Counted from the stretch's first letter, positions 13,595-34,694 are shown. The stretch is DNA of 49,167 bases from Candidatus Bipolaricaulota bacterium (GCA_030603215.1 JAUVYF010000003.1:1-49167), one strand, 5' to 3'. The notes: generated by a model from the sequence alone, not told the origin. Program-made: numbers and translations.

Positions 13595-14119
13595 GCTCTG
13601 ATCTCCTTGTTTTGTCGGGGTCCATTTGCCGGACTCCACAAGCTAATCACAGAAGTCCTACTGCTGCTGACAGCTTTCATGAGGCGTCATCGTTCACTGT
13701 CAACAAGCCAAGTAATCCCAAGTCTTGAAGCAGCAACCTGATTCAACACATTCCCGAAAGCATAGTAATCTGGATAGGAACCAGAGGCAACCTCCTTTAG
13801 TCGGCCAAGAATTCCGGCCCCGTTTCCATACTGAGTGTCCTAATACTGATTGTATGGATAGCCTAGATTGCCTTTCCACGATCTACACCCCTTGGGACTA
13901 CGGGATCAACTCACTGCAAGATCTAACCGCATTACCCCAAAGGAGTTACCTCCGTCACCGTTCTAGGTCCCCAAATGGACTACCCTCCTTTAGGTGGAGT
14001 CCCGATTCCAACAAGTCCGCCTTGATTCTCCGGATCCACCTGGACTGGGCCGCGCTTATGGAAGGGTGTGGGCATTGTCTCCTGAAAGGAGTACTGCAAT
14101 TGGAGCTAAAAGGATAAGG

Positions 14120-14791
14120 ATGAGATCTTTCCTCATAGTCCTCGTTAGTATACTCGCGACAGCTATAGTTATTGGGATGGCCTCCGCCTTAATTTGGCCG
14201 AGACCAGAAAGCCCCAACGCCGAGAGGGATATTGGGGCACAACCTCAGGACACAATTCTCCGTGAAACTGATTTGAACCATATAGGTCCCCGGATGAACT
14301 TGCCCCAAGATACCCCTTACGCTTATGGTTTTTGGTCTTTTTCCATCTTAGATTCGGGCAATATCAGTCGCTCTGGCCAGCCCAGGCTGGCTGAATTTCA
14401 GTGGCTAAGGGACAAGGGGTGGCGAAGCGTCGTCAATCTGAGAGTGTCCGATGAATATGATGAAATCGGCGATGACGCTGAGATCCCTGGGTTTAACGAA
14501 TTGGGTTTTAACTACCTGCATCTTCCTATCCCTGATGGCGGAGCGCCAAGCCAAGAACAGGCCAAAGCCTTTCTGAAATTCGTCACGGATCCTGATAACC
14601 AGCCAGTTGAAGTCCATTGTCGCGGCGGTTATGGAAGAACTGGGACAATGATCGCCCTTTACCGCTATGAGGTTGAGCGTTGGCCCATGAGAGAAGCAAT
14701 TGCCGAGTCCCGCCTCTACCATGGAGGGATTGCTAGCTCGCAAGAGCGATGGCTTCTCATCTGGGTTGAGGCCGCTACTTCGGAGACGTGA
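14120..14791 (+). CDS. Membrane-anchored Cys-based (dual-specificity/PTP-like) phosphatase
   Basis: N-terminal hydrophobic helix, RSGQP, PIPDG acid loop and VHCRGGYGRTG P-loop. Confidence 0.85.
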   Translation: MRSFLIVLVSILATAIVIGMASALIWPRPESPNAERDIGAQPQDTILRETDLNHIGPRMNLPQDTPYAYGFWSFSILDSGNISRSGQPRLAEFQWLRDKGWRSVVNLRVSDEYDEIGDDAEIPGFNELGFNYLHLPIPDGGAPSQEQAKAFLKFVTDPDNQPVEVHCRGGYGRTGTMIALYRYEVERWPMREAIAESRLYHGGIASSQERWLLIWVEAATSET

Positions 14792-17601: not shown

Positions 17602-17630
17602 TTGACAACCTTGTAGGTTCATGTTAATCT
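17602..17630 (+). promoter_or_regulatory. Sigma70-type promoter for the leader and substrate-binding protein unit
   Basis: TTGACA-N17-TAATCT. Confidence 0.55.
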
Positions 17631-17640
17631 CAAGGCTATC

Positions 17641-17724
17641 ATGCTTGAAGCTAAAGGGTACCAAGAGAAGACCAAGAATGTAGTTACCGGTTCCCTTTGG
17701 TTTGCTTATTATATTTGGTTGTAG
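17641..17724 (+). CDS. Putative attenuator leader peptide MLEAKGYQEKTKNVVTGSLWFAYYIWL
   Basis: 27-aa ORF directly after the promoter, with W/F/Y codons clustered before the stop and a terminator downstream. Confidence 0.7.
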   Translation: MLEAKGYQEKTKNVVTGSLWFAYYIWL

Positions 17725-17782
17725 CCGCCTTGTAAGAGCTCACCCAATTAATCACAGGTAAAGCTCAAAACAAGGCGAACAA

Positions 17783-17816
17783 GAGACTACGGGTAATTCC
17801 GTGGTCTTATTTTTTT
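17783..17816 (+). terminator. Leader (attenuator) intrinsic terminator
   Basis: GAGACTACGG/CCGTGGTCTT stem followed by A-T7, upstream of the SBP start. Confidence 0.75.
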
Positions 17817-17905
17817 CAGGGCTTTCCACTAGGTCAAGAAAGGAGGTGAAAACTTTTTGGCGAGCAGGAACTAGAAGAACGATCAACTATCTAAAGGAGT
17901 CTACT

Positions 17906-19120
17906 ATGAAACGAATCTTTATTCTGTTATTAGCGGTTGGGTTGATTGTGACACTGACAGTAAGCGCGACGGGAGCAGAGACGATAAAAATCGGCGCCTT
18001 GATGTCTTTAACTGGAGGACTAGGACCCTACGGCCCGTCAATTCTGGACGGCGCTCAAATGGCTGTTGATATGATCAACGCCGCAGGAGGGGTATTGGGT
18101 AAGCAGTTGGAGCTGGTCGTGCGAGATACGGCGACATCGCCCGATGTTGGTCGTGATGCTGCCAGCAAGCTCGTGGAACTTGATAGGGTACCAGCAATTG
18201 TAGGAGCTCTTTCTAGCGGCGTTACCCTTGCAGCGTCGAGTGTAACCATTCCCGCTGAGGTGGTCCTGATTTCACCCGCCTCGACCGCGCCTTCCATACC
18301 AGCGTTGGATGACGACGACTACGTGTTCAGAACGGTTGTATCGGACGCGGTGCAAGGGGTAGTGCTCGGTCGACTGGCAGTAATCCTCAACTATAAGCGC
18401 GTCTCCGTAACATACGTCAATAACGACTACGGTAAGGGCTTGGCGGAGACTTTCAAGAGTACCTTTGAGAGCCTTGGTGGCCAGGTGCTAACGATGGTCG
18501 CCTATGAGGAAAACAAGCCGTCCTATCGTGGTGAAGTGGATAATCTCCTATCCAAGGATCCCCAGGCGATCGTCATGGTCAGCTATCCGGTGGATGGGAA
18601 CAAGCAGATCGTAGAAGCGGTTGAAGCTGGATACCAGGGCGATTTCTTGATGACAGACGGAATGAAAGGCGAGGGCGTGTCTCCCGGCCCGGCCTGTTTA
18701 TCCGCAGAAGAACCCGGGCCCCTGGAAGGATCATACGGCACGGTGGCATCCGGCGGTTTCAAAGCCGCTCAGTTCGAAGCCGCTTATGACGCAGGAGGGT
18801 ATGGCCCAAGTACGATTCCTTACTACGATAAGGCATACGATGCGGTGACGTTGATCGCGCTCGCTATGGTCAGAGCGGGAGAAGCAACAGGACCAGCGAT
18901 CCGCGACAACCTGCGGGCAGTTGCCGGCCCACCTGGAGAGGTGGTCTTCTTCGACGAATGGGAGAAGGCCGTTGCGCTCTTGCAACAAGGAAAGGAGATC
19001 AACTACGAAGGTGCTGCTGGATCGGTTGATTTTAAGGATACCGGAGATGTAGAAGGGAACATCGAGATCTGGAAGATCGAGGGATGCCAGGTTATCAAAG
19101 TCATGATCGTTCCCGGCTAA
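17906..19120 (+). CDS. Liv-type (HAAT) ABC transporter substrate-binding protein
   Basis: Signal peptide, IKIGALMSLTG, INAAGGVLG, NNDYGKG, YDA; AAGGAG SD before the ATG at 17906. Confidence 0.9.
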   Translation: MKRIFILLLAVGLIVTLTVSATGAETIKIGALMSLTGGLGPYGPSILDGAQMAVDMINAAGGVLGKQLELVVRDTATSPDVGRDAASKLVELDRVPAIVGALSSGVTLAASSVTIPAEVVLISPASTAPSIPALDDDDYVFRTVVSDAVQGVVLGRLAVILNYKRVSVTYVNNDYGKGLAETFKSTFESLGGQVLTMVAYEENKPSYRGEVDNLLSKDPQAIVMVSYPVDGNKQIVEAVEAGYQGDFLMTDGMKGEGVSPGPACLSAEEPGPLEGSYGTVASGGFKAAQFEAAYDAGGYGPSTIPYYDKAYDAVTLIALAMVRAGEATGPAIRDNLRAVAGPPGEVVFFDEWEKAVALLQQGKEINYEGAAGSVDFKDTGDVEGNIEIWKIEGCQVIKVMIVPG

Positions 19121-19163
19121 TGTAAATAACAAGTGCAAGCATCTTTATAACCCTCCTTTTTTT

Positions 19164-19195
19164 GGGGCTGCCTTATCAGGCAGCCCCTTCTTTCT
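19164..19195 (+). terminator. Intrinsic terminator between the convergent transporter units
   Basis: GGGGCTGCCT-TATC-AGGCAGCCCC perfect stem followed by TTCTTTCT. Confidence 0.75.
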
Positions 19196-19305
19196 GGCTC
19201 TTTGTCGTTTCGAGTGGGTAACTGAAGAGAAAGGGTCAAGCGCCAAGACTTTCGCACAGGTACAGGATTCTTTTACCACAAAGGACACAAAGAGCCGATC
19301 CCTTT

Positions 19306-20325
19306 CTATGGCGTTTTTGAAGGTTTGCGTTCGCGTTGCAGCAGCCCCTGTGGTCGCCAGAGGAGGATCACTTCCAACAGTACTCCGATGATGATAATGC
19401 GGAGCGAGGCGGCCTGAGTGGCGGAGAAGGGAAAGTATTCTGTCAGAAAATCGGTCCCTGCCCAGATTCCCCATACGACAAAGCTCCCCAGAATAGCCCC
19501 CCTGTTGTTCCCGCTTCCTCCTAAGATCAACATCACCCATACGAGAAAGGTTCCGTAGAGAGGCTTGAACGAGGCGGGCGAGATGAAGCGAGCATAGTAC
19601 GCATATACGCCGCCACCGATCCCCATGATCATCGCCCCCAGCACGAGCGCCTGTAGCTTAAAGGAGAAGGTGTTCTTGCCGGACATCGCAACGGCATCCT
19701 CATCCTCGCGGATCGCCTTTAACACGCGTCCCCAAGGGGAGTGCACGAGTCGTTCTACAATGAGATAGAGGACAAAAAGAATGGCAAGAACCAAAAAGAG
19801 ATAAAACCAGTTATATGCTTTGGAAAACAGGCCATGTATCCATCCCTGTAAATCAGGGTGATTGCCCAAGAATGCCTTAACTCCTCCGTGGATCGGATCA
19901 TAGAACGGTGAAGGGATTTGCTGAAGCCCCCACACGCCGTTTGTAAGCCAGGACTCGTTCTTTAGCACTAATCTAATCGTCTCCGCGATCCCAATCGTGG
20001 CGATCGCGAGATAATCCGATCTGAGACGCAGAGTGGGAATGCCAATTAGGAAAGCGACAATTCCGCAAACAACGGCTGCAGCCAGCAATCCAGCGAGAAA
20101 AGGCAGCTCAAATCCCCCAAAAATCCGACCGTCCCATGCGCTTGGTGGTGGACCGGAGACCAGGGCTGCGGCATAAGCTCCTAATGCGTAGAAGCCGGCG
20201 ATTCCAATATTGAACAGGCCAGTATACCCCCACTGAATGTTAAGCCCAAGTGCAAGAATTCCATAAGTACCTGCGGTGATGGCAAAGAAGACAACGTAAT
20301 TGATGATTCCAATTAGTGTATCCAT
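19306..20325 (-). CDS. livM: HAAT ABC transporter permease (LivM-like)
   Basis: GLNIQWGYTG, LRLRSDYLAIAT, SPWGRVLKAIREDE, LGGSG. Confidence 0.88.
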   Translation of the reverse strand: MDTLIGIINYVVFFAITAGTYGILALGLNIQWGYTGLFNIGIAGFYALGAYAAALVSGPPPSAWDGRIFGGFELPFLAGLLAAAVVCGIVAFLIGIPTLRLRSDYLAIATIGIAETIRLVLKNESWLTNGVWGLQQIPSPFYDPIHGGVKAFLGNHPDLQGWIHGLFSKAYNWFYLFLVLAILFVLYLIVERLVHSPWGRVLKAIREDEDAVAMSGKNTFSFKLQALVLGAMIMGIGGGVYAYYARFISPASFKPLYGTFLVWVMLILGGSGNNRGAILGSFVVWGIWAGTDFLTEYFPFSATQAASLRIIIIGVLLEVILLWRPQGLLQRERKPSKTP

Positions 20326-21248
20326 TATCGCCTCTTCCCCAGCAATCCGGTTGGCTTCACTATCAGCATGAGAATCATGATGATGAAGGCCACCGCCGGT
20401 TTATAGCCCGTGGGGATGAACGCGGTCGAAACTTCTTCGGTGATCCCTATCACCATCCCTCCGACGATCGCCCCGTACGGGTTGCCGATTCCGCCCAGGA
20501 CTACCGCCGCGAAGATCGATAGGAGCATCTGCCACCCCAATTCCGGAGTGATGAACTTGTTCTCGATCCCCGCCAGAATGCCGGCGGTCGCTGCCAGCGC
20601 TCCCCCAATTACCCAGGTCCACACGATCACCCGGTTGGTATTGATCCCTGTAACGCGGGCAAGCGCGTTGTTATCCGCTGTCGCCCGCATCGCCTTCCCC
20701 ATCTTGGTGTATTTGAGAAATGCATGTACTAACACGACGAGCACGATGGTTACGAGAATGATAAATACCTGATCGGGCTTGATCCTTATTCCCAGCCCTG
20801 GAATTACGCTCGCTATTTGGATCCTTTCTATGTAGTAGTGTGGCTGGGGGCCCCAGAAAAACTGGAGGATGTTCCTCAATGCCAGCGCGACCCCAATCGA
20901 AGACATCATCAGGATGACCGACGAATGGTTACGCAACCGGTTGAAGAGTATGCGGTCGATCAAGACTACCGCCACGGCTGTCAGCCCTATTGCAAAGATA
21001 GCGGCTAGGATGAACCCAAAGCCGAACGAGAGAGGTCCTAAGGGTGTGTTGGGAATACTCCAGGAGACGAATAGGCTGAATAGCCCGAGAGCGATGTAGG
21101 CTCCGAGTGCCATCATGTCTCCGTAGGCAAAGTTGGAGAAGCCAATAATGCTGTAGATGAGAGAGACACCGATCCCTCCCAGGGAAAGGATGCTCCCCGA
21201 GATGACGCCGTATACGAGCAACTGTGGAATTCTTGATAGTATGTCCAT
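20325..21248 (-). CDS. livH: HAAT ABC transporter permease (LivH-like)
   Basis: NFAYG, TKMGKAMRATADN, FAAVVLGGIGN. Confidence 0.88.
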   Translation of the reverse strand: MDILSRIPQLLVYGVISGSILSLGGIGVSLIYSIIGFSNFAYGDMMALGAYIALGLFSLFVSWSIPNTPLGPLSFGFGFILAAIFAIGLTAVAVVLIDRILFNRLRNHSSVILMMSSIGVALALRNILQFFWGPQPHYYIERIQIASVIPGLGIRIKPDQVFIILVTIVLVVLVHAFLKYTKMGKAMRATADNNALARVTGINTNRVIVWTWVIGGALAATAGILAGIENKFITPELGWQMLLSIFAAVVLGGIGNPYGAIVGGMVIGITEEVSTAFIPTGYKPAVAFIIMILMLIVKPTGLLGKRR

Positions 21249-21257
21249 TTATTCTCC

Positions 21258-21962
21258 CTACCCACCGAGGTAGAGCTGTCCCACATCCTGGTTGGCTAAT
21301 AGGTCTTCACCTGTATCTTCGAAGCGGTTTCGACCACTGGCTAAGACGTAGCCGCGGTCGGATACCTTCAAGGACTCCTTGGCGTTCTGCTCCACTATGA
21401 GGATCGCTACACCACTCGCGTTGATGGCGACAATCCGCTCGAAGATCGTCGCTGCCAGATTCGGAGCCAGGGCAGCGGAGGGCTCGTCCAACATCAGTAG
21501 CTTCGGATCGAGCATCAACGCCCGTCCCATCGCCACCATCTGTCGTTCACCTCCGCTCATCTTCCCCACGCGCTGCTTTCGACGGTCGTTTAAAATTGGA
21601 AAGAGCTCATAGATCTCCTCTAGCTGTCCACTGAAGTCATCGGTGAGGATGAACGCCCCCATCTCCAGGTTCTCATTCACGGTGAGCGAGGGGAAGATAT
21701 TCTCCACTTGGGGCACGTATGCCATGCCCCGCCGCACGACCAGGTCAGGGGAAAGCCCTGTAATCTCCTCTTCCGCGAAGATGATCTGTCCCGCGGTCGG
21801 TGTGAGCAGGCCGAAGATCGTCTTCATCAGGGTCGATTTGCCGGCTCCATTAGGGCCGATCACCGTGACAATCTTGGCAGCCCCCACTTCGATGGAGACC
21901 CCATGAAGAATCTCCATGTCTCCATACCCGCTTGTGACCGCGTTAACTGTCAACAGCGACAT
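21258..21962 (-). CDS. livF: HAAT ABC transporter ATPase (LivF-like)
   Basis: GPNGAGKST, MSGGERQM, LDEPS, VEQNA; likely start is the ATG at 21962. Confidence 0.9.
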   Translation of the reverse strand: MSLLTVNAVTSGYGDMEILHGVSIEVGAAKIVTVIGPNGAGKSTLMKTIFGLLTPTAGQIIFAEEEITGLSPDLVVRRGMAYVPQVENIFPSLTVNENLEMGAFILTDDFSGQLEEIYELFPILNDRRKQRVGKMSGGERQMVAMGRALMLDPKLLMLDEPSAALAPNLAATIFERIVAINASGVAILIVEQNAKESLKVSDRGYVLASGRNRFEDTGEDLLANQDVGQLYLGG

Positions 21963-22716
21963 ATTGACCCCCAAGGTAGGCGTCGAGCACCTCTTGTTTC
22001 TTCTGCACCTCCGTTGGTGTCCCCTCAGCAAGTTTCTGCCCTTCGCTCATCACGATCACTGGGTTGCACAGCTTCATCACGAAATCCATGTCGTGTTCGA
22101 TCAACAGGAAGGTCGTGTTCTTCTCCGTGCACAGGCGATAGATCGAATCGGCCAGACGTTTTAGGAGAGTGCGGTTCACTCCGGCACCAGGTTCATCGAG
22201 CAAGACTAGTTTGGGTTTGCCCATCATCGTTTTGGCCAATTCGAGTAGCTTCTTCTGCCCACCGGAGAGCCTTCCCGCGTACTCATCTTTAAGCTCCGTC
22301 AGTTCTAGAAATGCCAGGACCTCGTGTGCTCTCTCCCGGATCGCGTGCTCTTGCTTGCTCACCAGTCGACCGCGTAGGAAGGGATTCCAAATCCGTTCAC
22401 CAAGTTGTTCGGTCGGTACGAGCATCAGGTTCTCTACTACCGTCATCGCTTTCCACTCGCGCGGAATCTGGAAAGTCCTTGCGATCCCCTTTTGGAAGAC
22501 GCGATGTGGGGAGAGGCCGGTGATCTCCTCATCACAGAGGTAGACCGTCCCCTTGTCGGGACTGGAGAACCCAGTGAGAAGATTGAATACCGTCGTCTTT
22601 CCTGCCCCGTTCGGTCCGATCAACCCGGTAATCGTCCCCGGATTAACATTAAACGAACAACAATCCACCGCGCGCAGTCCTCCAAACCATTTTGAAAGAT
22701 TGTCAACCACAAGCAC
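21943..22716 (-). CDS. livG: HAAT ABC transporter ATPase (LivG-like)
   Basis: FGGLRAV, GPNGAGKTT, LDEPGAGVN, IEHDM, AYLG; AAGGAGG SD before the GTG at 22716. Confidence 0.9.
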   Translation of the reverse strand: MLVVDNLSKWFGGLRAVDCCSFNVNPGTITGLIGPNGAGKTTVFNLLTGFSSPDKGTVYLCDEEITGLSPHRVFQKGIARTFQIPREWKAMTVVENLMLVPTEQLGERIWNPFLRGRLVSKQEHAIRERAHEVLAFLELTELKDEYAGRLSGGQKKLLELAKTMMGKPKLVLLDEPGAGVNRTLLKRLADSIYRLCTEKNTTFLLIEHDMDFVMKLCNPVIVMSEGQKLAEGTPTEVQKKQEVLDAYLGGQYVAVDS

Positions 22717-22738
22717 ACTTTCCTCCTTACAGACAAAC

Positions 22739-22768
22739 AAAAAACCGCAAGTCCTTAGACTTCCGGTT
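22739..22768 (-). terminator. Leader (attenuator) intrinsic terminator upstream of livG
   Basis: Minus strand ACCGGAAGTC-TAAG-GACTTGCGGT (one mismatch) running into a T tract. Confidence 0.7.
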
Positions 22769-22808
22769 TCCAGGCCCACTAGCAGTATGCAAGACACTGC
22801 CAGGCGAC

Positions 22809-22889
22809 CTACAACATCCAAATAAAGTAGTAATAAAGGGCGTTCTTAGCTGCTGTCACCTCCAATGTAGTAGCCTGAACTTGTATCAC
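22809..22889 (-). CDS. Putative attenuator leader peptide MIQVQATTLEVTAAKNALYYYFIWML
   Basis: AGGAGG SD 5 nt before GTG; 26 aa with a YYYF-W cluster before the stop; lies between promoter and terminator. Confidence 0.72.
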   Translation of the reverse strand: MIQVQATTLEVTAAKNALYYYFIWML

Positions 22890-22912
22890 ATCTTCCTCCT
22901 GCTGTGACACGA

Positions 22913-22941
22913 ATCCTAACAGGCCGACACAGTCTTGTCAA
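22913..22941 (-). promoter_or_regulatory. Sigma70-type promoter for the leader-livGFHM unit
   Basis: Minus strand TTGACA-N17-TAGGAT. Confidence 0.7.
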
Positions 22942-23263
22942 GCTCTGGATTTGGCAATTAACGAGTGGCGGTTTGCCTGCTTTGATACACTTGCCAGAAA
23001 AGTCGCCCAATTCCAAGGTGAGAGACAGCTCCAATCGCCAACAGAAAAAAGTACGGGTAAGCAAGAATAGCTCCAAGTAAGACCACAAATATCCGCAAGT
23101 CCCGCTTGATCAATCTTGCCTACACACCCTTACTAGGAAACCCTCGCCCGTAGCGAATAGCATACTCCTTGTTGGTGTAGCTGGCCAAGAGAAAGTCAGT
23201 CAAGGCAAGGCGCGCGCATAAGAGTAGACGAAAGACAAAGGCCAACCTCGCAAGATGCGGTGA

Positions 23264-25342
23264 TCAGGGATTTGCGCCGTAGGCCGGAACGTTTTCACCG
23301 CCTTCGGCAAACTGAAGGTTGTGGAGTGTGGCATACAGACAATCTTGGGCAAGCAGCTCGCGATGACTGCCTTGTTCAACAATCCGTCCTTCATGTAAAA
23401 CGACGATTTTGTTCGATTCACGGATGGTAGACAGCCGGTGGGCAACAACGATAGACGTGCGCCCACTCATGATCTTCCCAAGCGACTTCTGGATGAGGCT
23501 CTCGGTGTGCGAATCAATACTCGCCGTCGCCTCATCCAACACCAAAACGCGTGGATTGAACACCACAGCACGGGCAAACGAAAGCAATTGACGTTGCCCA
23601 ATCGACAAGGTAACCCCACGCTCCTTAACCTCGGTGTGGTATTTGTCAGGCAGATTCTCCACAAAGTGCGCGCTGACGAAGCGCGCTGCACTTACCACTT
23701 CTTCTTCCGGGATGTCTGTTCTCAGTCGGATATTGTCCATAATATCCCCCGAGAAAAGGAAAACATCTTGCAATACAACAGCCATTTGAGAGCGGAGAAA
23801 GGATAGCTCAATCTCTTCAATCGGAACACCATCAAGAAGGATCTCCCCTTTTTGGATTGGGTACATACGAAGGAGAATGCGAATGATCGTTGTTTTCCCT
23901 GACCCAGTAAACCCAACAATCGCGACCCGCTCACCTGGAGCTGCGCTAAACGACACTCCCCTTAGAACCCACTCTCCCTCATTGTAGGCAAACCAGACGT
24001 CGCGGAACTCAATCTTACCGCGACAGCGAGCCAAGGTTTTCCCTGTGCCGTGCTTCTCTTCGGGCTCTTCAAGCAGAAGAAAGATCCGCTCAGCAGCAGC
24101 CATCGCTCCCTGAAGAATGTTATACCCTTGGGAGAGTTCAAGAATCGGATTGAAGAGCATCCGCACATACTGGATGAACGCAGTCAATGCGCCTAAGGAA
24201 AGCCCTCCGCCCAGGACATTCCGCCCTCCATACCAGATAACAAGAGCTACGGCAAACGAGCTCAGAAAGCTCATCAATGGGCGGAAAACCGCAAAGATAA
24301 CCATCTGTTTCATGCTTGCAAGATACTTGTCGCGGTTGATCGCTGCGAAACGTTTATTTGCCTTACGTTCTTGCACAAAAACTTGTATGATGCGCATCCC
24401 AGAAATTGACTCTTGGAGATAGGCGTTCAACTTTGCGATCTGCTGGCGAACCTCGCGATAGGCACTGCGTACACGGTTTCGAAACCGGAATGCGGCAAAC
24501 ACGATAATTGGAAAGAGGGCAAGGATAACAAATGCAAGCCGCCATTCGAGACCAAACATAATCGACAGAACACCAATAACCAAAAAGACATCGCGGAACA
24601 GGTTGACAAGCATTGACGTAAACATCTCGTTAATCGCCGCGACATCGTTTGTTACACGCGTAACAAGCCTTCCCACCGGCGTGCGATCGAAGTACGACAC
24701 CGGCAAGCGAAGGACATGGGCAAAAATCTGCTGGCGCATGTCGTACATCACCTTCTGTCCAACAAGTTGGAGAAGATACACCTGAAAAGCGCCAAATAGG
24801 AATCGGGCCAGAAGCGCGAAGGCAAAAAGGCTAGCAATCCGTACCACACCAGCAATTGCTGAGTCTCGAAGCACAATCAGGTCACGAGAAGGAACCTTGC
24901 GCAGCGATTCCTGATCAGCAAGATACCCCCCACCTACCTGAGTAAACGCCTGTTGGTTGCGTATCGCTATCGAAGCATGCGAACTATCCTCAGCAACAAA
25001 CAGATAGCGCTCGCGAGAGAGCACGCCCATGGCTTCCCAAGCTTCTCGTGCCTCTCTATCGATCAGACGAAGATCAATCAGGTAGCGCTTATCTCCAAGC
25101 GAGATGAAATCGGCAGACGACGGAGGCTCTGAAAGGGAAACGATCCCAAGCGGAGGGATCATGTAATTGTCGATGGCCAGCTTGGAAAGGTATGGAATTC
25201 CGATCTGTATTCCCGTCAGAACAAGAATCAGAACAACACACACCAGCAGCAAACCCTTGTACGGAACAAGAAACCGCAGGAGCTGTCGCATCAAACGAAG
25301 GTCAAACGCTTTTCCTAAGATCTCGTCACTATCGTGAGTCAG
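23264..25342 (-). CDS. ABC exporter subunit (TMD+NBD) of a heterodimeric pair
   Basis: GFTGSGKTT, LSIGQRQ, VLDEATASID, AHRLST; start uncertain (CTG 25342 by SD spacing, or ATG 25378). Confidence 0.88.
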   Translation of the reverse strand: MTHDSDEILGKAFDLRLMRQLLRFLVPYKGLLLVCVVLILVLTGIQIGIPYLSKLAIDNYMIPPLGIVSLSEPPSSADFISLGDKRYLIDLRLIDREAREAWEAMGVLSRERYLFVAEDSSHASIAIRNQQAFTQVGGGYLADQESLRKVPSRDLIVLRDSAIAGVVRIASLFAFALLARFLFGAFQVYLLQLVGQKVMYDMRQQIFAHVLRLPVSYFDRTPVGRLVTRVTNDVAAINEMFTSMLVNLFRDVFLVIGVLSIMFGLEWRLAFVILALFPIIVFAAFRFRNRVRSAYREVRQQIAKLNAYLQESISGMRIIQVFVQERKANKRFAAINRDKYLASMKQMVIFAVFRPLMSFLSSFAVALVIWYGGRNVLGGGLSLGALTAFIQYVRMLFNPILELSQGYNILQGAMAAAERIFLLLEEPEEKHGTGKTLARCRGKIEFRDVWFAYNEGEWVLRGVSFSAAPGERVAIVGFTGSGKTTIIRILLRMYPIQKGEILLDGVPIEEIELSFLRSQMAVVLQDVFLFSGDIMDNIRLRTDIPEEEVVSAARFVSAHFVENLPDKYHTEVKERGVTLSIGQRQLLSFARAVVFNPRVLVLDEATASIDSHTESLIQKSLGKIMSGRTSIVVAHRLSTIRESNKIVVLHEGRIVEQGSHRELLAQDCLYATLHNLQFAEGGENVPAYGANP

Positions 25343-27069
25343 GAAGACACCTCCTTTTCTGCCTGCTGCAAACGCCAAATATGGTGATAAGTCCCGCGTA
25401 GCCCAATCAACTCATCATGCGCGCCCGATTCTATGATCCTCCCGTGATCAAGAACGATGATCCGATCCGCGCGCATCACGGCAGAGATGCGATGCGCGAT
25501 TAAAAGGACTGTTCTTTGGCTGAAGAACTTACGCAGATTCGCAAGGACAAGTTCTTCCTTCTCTGCGTCAACTGCGGAGAGAGGGTCATCAAGAATGAGG
25601 ATCTTTGGGTCAAGGAGAAGGGCACGGGCAATTGCCACACGCTGTTGCTGCCCTCCAGAGAGAGAGATGCCGCGCTCCCCAACAATCGTCTGATACTTCT
25701 TGGGAAACTCACAGATCTCATCGTGTACTCCAGCAAGCCGAGCCACTCGCTCAACTTCACTCACAGATGCCTCTGGATTCCCAAAGGCAATGTTCTCATG
25801 AATTGTATAGGAAAAGAGAAAAGGGTCTTGTGGGACAAATCCAATCGCCCGCCGCAGTCCACTAAGTGAGAGTTCATGTACATCGGTCCCCCCAATTCGT
25901 ATGCTTCCCGTTGGCGGGTCAAACACGCGCAGCATCAAATGAGCAAGGGTGCTTTTCCCAGCTCCGGTCAGTCCAACAACCCCAAGGGTTGTCCCCGATT
26001 CAATTGTTAGATCGATGTTTCTAAGGCTAGGCTCGACCCTGTTGTGGTTTTGTCCGGGATAGGTGAAGGTAAGATTATGGATTTCGATCCGCGTATCACT
26101 GAGTTGTTGCGGCGCCTGGGGCTCAGTAATTGCTGGAGGCACAGCAAGGAGACGATTGATTCGCCGCAGCGAGGCGCGCCCCCGCTGTACGACATTTACC
26201 GCTATCCCCAGCGAGATCATCGGCCAGACGAGCATGACAACGTACTGGGTTAATGCAACGAAATCTCCAAGGGAGATCGTTCCCATAATGACGCTGCGCC
26301 CTCCAAGCCAGAGAACAATTCCTAAAGAGGCCCCGCCCAAAAGCTCAATTAGTGGATGGAAGATTCCCCACACACGGACGAGGGACATGTTCTTGTCGAC
26401 CAGCAACTGACTCGTCTGGTTGAACCCCAAATTTGTTCCTTTCTCCTGAACAAAAGATTTCAACACACGAATACCCGCAACATCCTCCCGCACCTTTTCC
26501 ATCACCTTAGAGAAGGCTACCTGTACTGCTTCGAATCGTCGGTGGATTAGCTTCCCAAATCCAAGCATGAACAAAGTCAGAATCGGTAACGGGATCAGTA
26601 CATACAGGGTAAGGCGCGGTTCAATCGAGAGCATAATCCCAACTGAGACTGGGATCATAAGGAGAGGATCCGCGATTGTAAGCACTCCAAACCCGCACGC
26701 TCGGCTGACTGCGTCAATATCATTAGTGGCATGGGCCATCAGCTCGCCAGTCTTATGCTCATTGTAGAATGAGGGAGAAAGGATCAGAAGGTGTTCGTAG
26801 AGGCGCTCTCGCAAGTCTCGTTCAATCCTTCGCGCAGTCCCAATAAGAAAGTAACGCCACAGAAAGCGAAAGCTCATTGCTACAATTGCGATCAAAACAA
26901 TGTAAATACCGCCGCGAAGGAATCCCGTCTCTCCGCGAGAGAGTCGATCGATCACGTCTCGGATCACCAAAGGAATCAGAAGTCCGGCTCCATCTACCAC
27001 CAATAGCGCAATGAATCCGGCAAACACTCTCCCTCGATATCGCCATAACCACTTCGTTAACTGATCCAT
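25339..27069 (-). CDS. ABC exporter subunit (TMD+NBD) with degenerate Walker B
   Basis: GLTGAGKST, LSGGQQQR, ILDDPLSAVD (Asp in place of the catalytic Glu), typical of heterodimeric exporters. Confidence 0.9.
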   Translation of the reverse strand: MDQLTKWLWRYRGRVFAGFIALLVVDGAGLLIPLVIRDVIDRLSRGETGFLRGGIYIVLIAIVAMSFRFLWRYFLIGTARRIERDLRERLYEHLLILSPSFYNEHKTGELMAHATNDIDAVSRACGFGVLTIADPLLMIPVSVGIMLSIEPRLTLYVLIPLPILTLFMLGFGKLIHRRFEAVQVAFSKVMEKVREDVAGIRVLKSFVQEKGTNLGFNQTSQLLVDKNMSLVRVWGIFHPLIELLGGASLGIVLWLGGRSVIMGTISLGDFVALTQYVVMLVWPMISLGIAVNVVQRGRASLRRINRLLAVPPAITEPQAPQQLSDTRIEIHNLTFTYPGQNHNRVEPSLRNIDLTIESGTTLGVVGLTGAGKSTLAHLMLRVFDPPTGSIRIGGTDVHELSLSGLRRAIGFVPQDPFLFSYTIHENIAFGNPEASVSEVERVARLAGVHDEICEFPKKYQTIVGERGISLSGGQQQRVAIARALLLDPKILILDDPLSAVDAEKEELVLANLRKFFSQRTVLLIAHRISAVMRADRIIVLDHGRIIESGAHDELIGLRGTYHHIWRLQQAEKEVSS

Positions 27070-34534: not shown

Positions 34535-34610
34535 TGGTGGGTGGTACAGGACTTGAACCTGTGGCCTCATGCACGTCAAGCATGCGCTCTCCCAACTGAG
34601 CTAACCACCC
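34535..34610 (-). tRNA. tRNA-Val(GAC)
   Basis: 76-nt cloverleaf GGGTGGTTAGCTCAG...CATGC-TTGACGT-GCATG...GGTTCAAGTCC...ACCA with encoded CCA. Confidence 0.95.
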
Positions 34611-34622
34611 CTACGCCCGAAA

Positions 34623-34694
34623 AGGCGGCGAGCGGATTCGAACCGCTGAGTCGGGGATTTGCAGTCCCATGCCTTTCCACTTGGCTACGCCGCC
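34623..34694 (-). tRNA. tRNA-Cys(GCA)
   Basis: GGCGGCGTAGCCAAGTGG...GGGA-CTGCAAA-TCCC...GGTTCGAATCC; U discriminator; CCA not encoded. Confidence 0.93.

Follow-up and report, generated by a model that had tools for sequence, protein, structure and literature searches.

The window analysed here is a stretch of 49,167 nucleotides (nt) from a Candidatus Bipolaricaulota bacterium (GCA_030603215.1 JAUVYF010000003.1:1-49167), which carries one HAAT-type (LIV-type) amino-acid importer in two units, a binding-protein gene and livGFHM. Our reading of its sequence, to which we give a probability of about 0.75, is that each unit is preceded by a ribosome-mediated transcription attenuator, and that both attenuators sense a shortage of aromatic amino acids. 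The two leaders are one instance of a larger, apparently undescribed family of attenuators with an unusual arrangement of hairpin and terminator. Leader-peptide attenuation had been suggested in an earlier note on this DNA, and it is supported by the conservation of the leaders, the reuse of one scaffold before other genes, the match between leader codons and the class of the downstream gene, and the layout upstream of livG.

In the proposed working, each leader transcript would encode a short peptide with Phe, Tyr and Trp codons just upstream of a hairpin, P2, which is followed by a terminator. When charged aromatic tRNAs are plentiful, the ribosome would enter P2, melt it and release, and transcription would stop at the terminator. 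When they are scarce, the ribosome would park at the codon cluster, its leading edge reaching the base of a P2 that stays intact, and the polymerase would read through. Read-through at both leaders would allow both halves of the importer to be made together. The states were assigned in this sense, intact P2 to read-through and melted P2 to termination, because biosynthetic genes must switch on by starvation. From physiology and geometry we infer that intact P2, with or without a parked ribosome, means read-through.

Two leaders before one importer

The reported span, 17602-22941, is bounded exactly by the −35 hexamers of the two leader promoters. Leader 1, upstream of the binding-protein gene, consists of the following elements, in which ORF stands for open reading frame.

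17602..17630 (+): leader-1 promoter, with TTGACA at 17602-17607, a 17-nt spacer containing TG, and a weak −10 hexamer at 17625-17630
17641..17724 (+): leader ORF 1, 27 codons, from the ORF listing; no Shine-Dalgarno sequence
17648..17703 (+): hairpin P1 in the 5′ part of leader ORF 1, from the minimum-energy fold; a purine-rich arm pairs with a pyrimidine-rich arm
17698..17718 (+): aromatic control-codon cluster, with Trp, Phe, Tyr, Tyr and Trp within seven codons; its position relative to P2 fits the family geometry
~17726-17777 (+): hairpin P2, from the fold, starting directly after the stop codon at 17722-17724
17783..17816 (+): intrinsic terminator, stem 17783-17808 followed by a U-run, from the terminator scan and the fold
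17840..17849 (+): Shine-Dalgarno-like element AAGGAGGTGA, read from the sequence of the terminator-to-start spacer; partly paired with an upstream CCTTTC, and recurring in relatives

The promoter is absent from a consensus scan because its −10 hexamer matches at 3/6 positions only, and the ORF is near-leaderless because its start lies about 10 nt past that hexamer. The fold of leader 1 has an energy of −58.2 kcal/mol (z −3.31), which was equalled by 0/200 shuffles. Relatives have hairpins of different sequence at the position of P1.

The spacer between terminator and gene (17817-17905) and its equivalents in relatives (L004, L011, L016, L034 and others) measure 60-100 nt and contain the near-perfect Shine-Dalgarno-like AAGGAGGTGA. 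Pairing of this element with an upstream CCTTTC-type stretch covaries across genomes, and non-conserved mini-ORFs come after it. Biosynthetic genes that follow a leader of the same type (scaffold R1, below) start 0-52 nt past the terminator, as against 60-100 nt at the binding-protein gene. The spacer element may be a second layer of control, or it may serve the highly expressed binding-protein mRNA as a standby site.

On the other strand, livG is preceded by leader 2.

22941..22913 (-): leader-2 promoter, TTGACA, 17 nt and TAGGAT, plus an upstream TG; 10/12 consensus matches
22889..22809 (-): leader ORF 2, 26 codons, with a GTG start at 22889 preceded by AGGAGG at 22900-22895
22865-22856 (-): Shine-Dalgarno-like TTGGAGGTGA within leader ORF 2
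22835-22818 (-): aromatic cluster within leader ORF 2
~22810-22772 (-): hairpin P2, from the fold; the stop codon is at its 5′ base, and it abuts the terminator without a linker
~22771-22740 (-): intrinsic terminator with one internal mismatch, from the fold; U-run to ~22734

The automatic ORF listing reads this frame from an upstream GTG, giving 33 aa. The terminator is absent from the consensus scan because of its internal mismatch; as putative elements, it and the leader-1 promoter rest on conservation in relatives. The livG ribosome-binding site lies within about 12 nt after the U-run. Generally it is found within 10-20 nt of the terminator before livG, with no separate livG promoter between. 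As this gap leaves no room for a promoter, livGFHM can be expressed only by read-through.

Most livG-type leader ORFs contain TTGGAGGTGA in frame (as Leu-Glu-Val), about 10 codons ahead of the control cluster and frequently within a small hairpin loop. A pause of the ribosome there, or its synchronisation with the polymerase, is a possible role.

The earlier note had described two convergent, separately promoted units, each with a promoter, an ORF of 26-27 codons, a hairpin, an intrinsic terminator and the structural gene in that order. Gene calls and the promoters at both ends agree with this description. The similar last codons that it pointed out, ATT TGG TTG TAG and ATT TGG ATG TTG TAG, were likewise found on reading the sequence. 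Phe, Tyr and Trp account for 5 of the last 8 sense codons in each leader ORF. A search of the full 1.74 Mb assembly for small ORFs ending just 5′ of a terminator-like hairpin gave 126 such terminators; by aromatic content of the last 12 residues, the window leaders came first and second.

Both leaders are conserved among Candidatus Bipolaricaulota relatives, in ORFs, hairpins and terminators, as the earlier note's reading required. Binding-protein leaders have TTGAC with a start codon 38-40 nt downstream in 22/24 cases, three of which are duplicates of the same genomes. Pairing in the P2 and terminator helices reaches 95.2% in 13 of these leaders, compared with 32-48% in slid controls; 8 pairs have changed on both sides, and the covariation score was equalled by 0/500 shuffles. 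The terminator of this type has 11 conserved pairs, 4 of them with a compensatory change (21 leaders). The livG leaders belong to another scaffold, unrelated to the first, in which a Shine-Dalgarno sequence comes ahead of the ORF and the terminator, also conserved, is a different one. Its covariance model, R2, matches the window at 22734-22834 and has matches in 24/151 class genomes, one in each of 23 and two in the last (G154). A LivG-length ORF follows 21/25 of these matches; the other four, which are weaker, do not precede one.

Control codons and downstream genes

Covariance model R1 was built on the binding-protein leader, and comprises the codon cluster, P2 and the terminator. It matches the window at 17704-17816, terminator included, and matches 50/151 class genomes and 35/43 family genomes, with up to six copies per genome. 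We fetched and re-searched 90 R1 loci, and used 92 matches after 13 weak or antisense matches had been left out. At 71/92 of these a near-leaderless ORF starts 36-42 nt after TTGAC. The sequence of the R1 terminator is nearly fixed across operons and genera, and the neighbouring P2 varies freely. The near-invariance extends to a U-G wobble at the fourth stem pair and to a two-part U-run, which is unusual for an intrinsic terminator.

The scaffold is reused before at least seven named gene classes. Downstream ORFs were grouped by blastp clusters and the classes were named by Pfam on representatives, so the lines below give the members checked by Pfam, the remaining ones being placed by blastp cluster. 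Codons were counted in a purely positional interval, those starting 27 to 4 nt before the base of P2, in 86/92 leaders. The six outside the count are L170, whose upstream flank is cut by the contig start and which has no ORF, and five in which P2 and terminator were not parsed.

HAAT binding proteins: 20 R1 leaders (Pfam 3/20)
PF04392 binding proteins: 17 R1 leaders (Pfam 3/17); at least one Trp and at least four aromatic codons in 14/14
Chorismate mutase type I (CM_1): 13 R1 leaders (Pfam 4/13); at least four Phe/Tyr codons in 11/12
Homoserine dehydrogenase (hom): 12 R1 leaders (Pfam 4/12); at least two Thr codons in 12/12, against 0/54 in five other named classes
Cys/Met-metabolism PLP enzyme: 5 R1 leaders (Pfam 2/5); at least two Met codons in 4/4, all with three in a row
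DAHP synthase: 3 R1 leaders (Pfam 2/3), plus 1 assigned by synteny only, its downstream ORF being cut by the locus end; three Trp codons in a row in 4/4, against 0/82 elsewhere
Aspartate kinase: 2 R1 leaders (Pfam 1/2)
Threonyl-tRNA-synthetase-like N-terminus: 1 R1 leader
Singleton downstream ORFs: several R1 leaders

The observed chi-square for the association of codons with class was reached by 0/5000 label shuffles; the genomes are related, and the counts and shuffles therefore overstate independence. Because the codons 5′ of P2 match the downstream gene class, we take these leaders to be genuine ribosome-mediated attenuators, and it is chiefly this frame-specific match that leads us to accept the leader ORFs as translated and sensed. 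Solved structures of PF04392 proteins bind L-Trp, L-Tyr and L-Phe, in the table of structures drawn on here (PMC10443332, Table 1). The codon cluster therefore predicts the substrate of a transporter as well as a pathway.

Several individual leaders combine or vary these patterns. Back-to-back pairs of R1 attenuators occur in three genomes (L129, L131 and L137, at G022:C34, G138:C2 and G015:C14), each made up of a leader with Phe/Tyr codons before chorismate mutase and a leader with three Trp codons before DAHP synthase. A TrpA gene is on the same contig at G015:C14 and G022:C34, and in G015 it is on the strand of the DAHP synthase gene. Thr and Met codons are combined in two homoserine-dehydrogenase leaders (L132 and L130, at G024:C303 and G108:C52), which fits an enzyme common to both pathways; one such leader has three Met codons further upstream plus three Thr codons. 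A few Thr codons are found where the scaffold precedes a threonyl-tRNA-synthetase-like N-terminal ORF (L163, G138:C13) or an aspartate kinase with ACT domains (L150 and L153, G152).

Geometry of P2 and the terminator

Of the R1 leaders (n=72), 38 have no nucleotide between P2 and the terminator, and 65 have a linker of 3 nt or fewer. In 64 of them the stop codon falls within the 5′ half of P2, and in another 6 it comes just ahead of P2. Measured to the base of P2, the control codons begin about 16-20 nt (first codon) and about 7 nt (last codon) upstream. The livG-type leaders (n=19) have the same design, with a linker of 0 nt in 10 and at most 3 nt in 17, and a stop codon from 5 nt before P2 to 14 nt inside it. 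Both window leaders have the stop codon at the 5′ base of P2; most relatives have it inside the 5′ arm. A ribosome stalled on the cluster would have its front edge anywhere from about 7 nt before the P2 base to 6 nt into the helix; one at the stop codon occupies the 5′ arm. Pairing probabilities from the partition function (n=77) for successive ribosome positions were as follows.

No ribosome: P2 0.95, terminator 0.97
Ribosome at first control codon: P2 0.95, terminator 0.97
Ribosome at last control codon: P2 0.55, terminator 0.97
Ribosome at stop codon: P2 0, terminator 0.97

Among the points against this reading, besides the relatedness of the genomes, are the folding tests. The earlier note had proposed folding with the ribosome footprint masked. 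In 17 leaders, folded at full length and truncated before the 3′ arm of the terminator, the terminator persisted in the minimum-energy fold at every simulated ribosome position, and no competitor of it appeared. Extension of P2 onto the 5′ arm of the terminator showed no gain over shuffled flanks (20 leaders, mean z +0.82; 11 leaders, mean z +0.39), in sets that leave out several leaders, the window's own binding-protein leader among them. The consensus dot plot of 21 leaders contained no conserved alternative helix, only weak alternatives rich in G-U pairs. Thus an antiterminator mutually exclusive with the terminator was not found in any fold test, nearest-neighbour folding being blind to steric and kinetic effects. 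Leader 2, moreover, is unexceptional in folding energy (z −1.26), 16/200 shuffles folding as well. Pairing of the P2 loop or arms with the terminator arms, sought by eye, was present in single genomes and was dropped since close relatives do not keep it. Hence the switch either works differently from the textbook case or has so far escaped these tests.

The candidate that we prefer, tentative and rather doubtful as it is, is steric attenuation without antiterminator pairing, in which a parked ribosome or a rigid P2 would block closure of the terminator stem in the exit channel of RNA polymerase. The 3′ strand of the P2 base runs, through a linker of 0-3 nt, straight into the 5′ arm of the terminator. 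A ribosome at the stop codon would melt P2, the freed 3′ arm would form a long single-stranded tether, and the terminator could close. Such a mechanism would explain why P2 can have any sequence while the terminator is fixed, why the cluster lies 20 to 5 nt before P2, and why two unrelated scaffolds share one geometry. P2 might instead act through a kinetic effect, a factor that needs a single-stranded 3′ arm, or an undetected tertiary contact.

Amino acids probably sensed, related systems and the importer locus

Aromatic sensing by both window leaders is supported by their codons. The mixed Tyr/Phe/Trp sensor suggested in the earlier note has counterparts in the similar mixed clusters that precede chorismate mutase and the aromatic-binding PF04392 proteins. 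In the window's genus the binding-protein leader has 4 aromatics of 8 in the counted interval, the same in all 4 genus members; the window's own leader is outside the 20-row parse, and its composition was read directly from its ORF. Of 8 codons counted in the livG leaders, 5, 5 and 4 are aromatic in the three parsed genus members; the other 16 genomes have 0-4. The aromatic content of the two leaders in a genome co-varies (13 genomes, Spearman 0.87; 0.78 in the 11 that remain with the window's genus excluded). The rank correlation is the same whether the binding-protein leaders of G000 and G001 enter with 5 aromatics, as in the last 8 sense codons, or with 4, as in the positional interval.

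Searches of the 4 genus genomes (G000-G003; 1.1-1.7 Mb, 87-93% complete) found no chorismate synthase, TrpA, KARI or PF04392 protein, and prephenate dehydratase was not found in the window's own genome (G000), the sole genome searched for it. These results suggest broad amino-acid auxotrophy in the genus. Given the calibration of codons against gene class, we infer that the importer carries aromatic amino acids. On the simplest reading, a small-genome lineage depends on import and has probably tuned its one HAAT system to aromatic shortage.

The aromatic part of this reading faces several difficulties. Of the checks proposed in the earlier note, alignment of upstream regions upheld the leaders and the covariation of their stems, and did not extend the heavy weighting of aromatic codons beyond the genus. 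Most HAAT leaders have Leu, Ile, Val, Met and His codons plus 0-3 aromatics, so that heavy aromatic weighting is peculiar to the window's genus; at least 4 aromatics of 8 occur in 1/20 rows of HAAT binding-protein leaders, and that row is a genus mate. We considered whether leader composition follows missing pathways, which it does not do cleanly across genomes with biosynthetic markers; two genomes with strongly aromatic leaders keep chorismate synthase and TrpA. A genus without KARI must import branched-chain amino acids too, and the window's leaders have only 2 Leu/Ile/Val codons.

These points bear most directly on an alternative that we consider unlikely, in which the leaders are generic hydrophobic sensors of a broad Leu/Ile/Val/Met/Phe importer, and their aromatic enrichment is drift and uninformative on aromatic import. 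It would accommodate both the mixed leaders of other genera and the lack of KARI, and Peripla_BP_6 structures, in the portion of the survey consulted, bind mainly Leu, Val and Ile (PMC10443332). It is harder to reconcile with the rest of the R1 scaffold, where cluster identity is tightly tied to downstream function, and with the joint shift of both leaders in the window's genus. Nor does it account for the aromatic biosynthesis markers and the PF04392 protein, present in 11/24 family members, not being found in the genus. A paralogous HAAT binding protein has three-Met leaders, which implies that HAAT leaders differ by paralogue.

We think it very improbable that the leaders encode arrest peptides that sense a free amino acid, as TnaC or SpeFL do, with induction by abundance. 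As this view would have it, close relatives share the C-terminal parts of their peptides, with differences mainly at third codon positions, and the stop codon is at or inside P2. Outside the cluster, however, peptide sequence is not conserved across classes. The scaffold controls biosynthetic genes (homoserine dehydrogenase, chorismate mutase, DAHP synthase, the Met-pathway enzyme) whose leaders carry runs of the pathway's own end product, where induction by abundance would be senseless. Unlike TnaC and SpeFL, the peptides here share the cluster only, biosynthetic genes are among the targets, and the terminators are intrinsic and not Rho sites.

Little credence can be given to the view that the terminators leak constitutively and do no more than fix expression levels or yield a small leader RNA, without any sensing of amino acids. 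Equilibrium folding does keep the terminator in all states, and metatranscriptome contigs bridge the leader-1 terminator into the binding-protein gene. The contigs, from four runs and all of related strains, are uninformative on starts, ends, strand and level, and we take them as a weak hint. They cover the binding-protein gene and parts of livM, livH, livF and livG, with none at 22652-23000; one begins at 17638 and another bridges 17779-17966. Leaky termination leaves unexplained the match of codons to pathways, the strict geometry of cluster and P2, and the co-variation of the two leaders.

Least probable of all, and scarcely credible, is a riboswitch or protein-dependent attenuator, in which a small molecule or protein would bind the hairpin-terminator unit and the small ORFs would be by-products of U-rich RNA that are never translated. 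In its favour, the terminator has an unusually conserved sequence next to a variable P2, and folding tests found no RNA-only switch. Against it, in-frame runs of ACN, AUG or UGG codons match the downstream pathway, the start codon keeps a fixed distance from the promoter, no Rfam family reaches threshold, and no regulator gene was found among the neighbouring genes checked.

In enterobacteria the LivJ/LivK-LivHMGF (LIV-I/LS) genes of E. coli are under a protein regulator, not leader peptides. The importer described here has the same five-component HAAT architecture, but the binding-protein gene runs towards livGFHM, and a separate putative attenuator precedes each unit. The enterobacterial attenuators trpL, pheL, hisL, thrL, ilvL and leuL have an ORF with control codons upstream of an intrinsic terminator, and stalling leads to read-through; multivalent clusters are known among them, as in ilv. 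The leaders described here likewise have a short ORF with a run of control codons ahead of an intrinsic terminator. They differ in that importers are among the regulated genes, that the leader-1 type is near-leaderless, that the control codons are 5′ of the ribosome-sensitive hairpin and not inside it, and that this hairpin abuts the terminator and shares no nucleotides with it. The short polycysteine ORFs of mycobacteria reportedly act on translation, whereas every leader here has an intrinsic terminator with a U-run downstream of its ORF. Those mycobacterial ORFs are described, in the part of the report cited, as leaderless, with a codon content that senses one amino acid and controls the downstream genes of the operon (bioRxiv 10.1101/834739).

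The closest described architecture, among the sources consulted in part, is the ilvBNC attenuator of C. glutamicum. Its leader peptide starts one nucleotide from the transcript start, three hairpins follow in succession, and the antiterminator and terminator hairpins lie side by side and compete for a shared GCC trinucleotide (PMC11857589). As far as the cited sections go, the near-leaderless peptide, the three hairpins and the adjoining positions of the last two of them are common to both. Here, by contrast with those sections, no shared or competing nucleotides were found, and the scaffold is reused for many operons with a conserved terminator sequence. In Streptococcus suis, T-box control of aromatic amino-acid uptake, a TrpX-type binding protein included, is described in the passages cited (PMC9382623). 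There, as would be the case here, lack of charging of the cognate tRNA leads, by way of a terminator, to expression of uptake genes. T-boxes, unlike the window leaders, read uncharged tRNA directly. The T-box model gave no match in the window, in either leader or in 7 related loci at any threshold used. In searches to E 10, Rfam Phe_leader (RF01859) scored 22 bits on leader 1, below its threshold of 55 (E 0.25), and leader 2 had no match; at gathering thresholds there were 0 matches in the 7 related loci.

As of 2010, leader peptides were known from Proteobacteria and Actinobacteria, plus the Firmicutes cases of the paper itself, and very few ABC transporters were known to be attenuated, in the part of that paper used here (PMC2965389). 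The earlier note knew of no description of the paired arrangement. Our literature search agreed, yielding no leader-peptide control of a HAAT importer and no paired attenuators on its halves, and no description of attenuators in Bipolaricaulota/Acetothermia was found in the literature searched.

The proposed leaders would bring leader-peptide attenuation into a candidate phylum for which metagenomes are nearly the only source of knowledge, and in which one modular scaffold appears to run an amino-acid regulon comprising Thr, Met, Phe/Tyr and Trp synthesis and two kinds of importer. The codon cluster would serve as a sequence-only predictor of transporter substrate, validated on PF04392 and applicable to uncharacterised HAAT paralogues; it predicts aromatic amino acids for the window's genus and Met for the HAAT paralogue. 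The non-overlap of the ribosome-sensitive hairpin and the terminator, if true, would represent a different physical route of ribosome control over termination. Unrelated leaders on the two halves of the importer would show co-regulation of stoichiometric partners outside one operon.

The genes of the importer were assigned as follows.

17906..19120 (+): substrate-binding protein gene, Peripla_BP_6, 404 aa
19164..19187 (strand not assigned): GC-rich hairpin between the convergent units, from the terminator scan
20325..19306 (-): livM-like permease gene, by family scoring (NCBIfam)
21248..20325 (-): livH-like permease gene, by family scoring (NCBIfam)
21962..21258 (-): livF-like ATPase gene, by family scoring (NCBIfam)
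22716..21943 (-): livG-like ATPase gene, by family scoring (NCBIfam)

The five-part set is complete, with a Peripla_BP_6 protein, two BPD_transp_2 permeases and two ATPases, one of which has a BCA_ABC_TP_C tail. All NCBIfam scores are under the equivalog cut-offs, and the substrate therefore cannot be assigned by family. In a sequence search, the solved structures nearest to the binding protein were amino-acid binders of the LivJ type. Gene order and convergent layout are kept in 8/8 relatives fetched for comparison, and the convergent layout is also present in most loci of a second set of relatives. The hairpin at 19164..19187 is likely a two-way terminator for both units.

Directly upstream of the leader-2 promoter are two adjoining fused ABC exporter genes (ABC_membrane and ABC_tran) at 23264-27069 (-). 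An ORF at 13994-14791 (+), beside a methionine sulfoxide reductase gene, has a dual-specificity or tyrosine phosphatase domain of the kind that is fused to NAD kinases and is also found in polymorphic toxin systems. Two adjacent tRNA genes at 34538-34694 (-) are the sole Rfam matches in the window at gathering thresholds.

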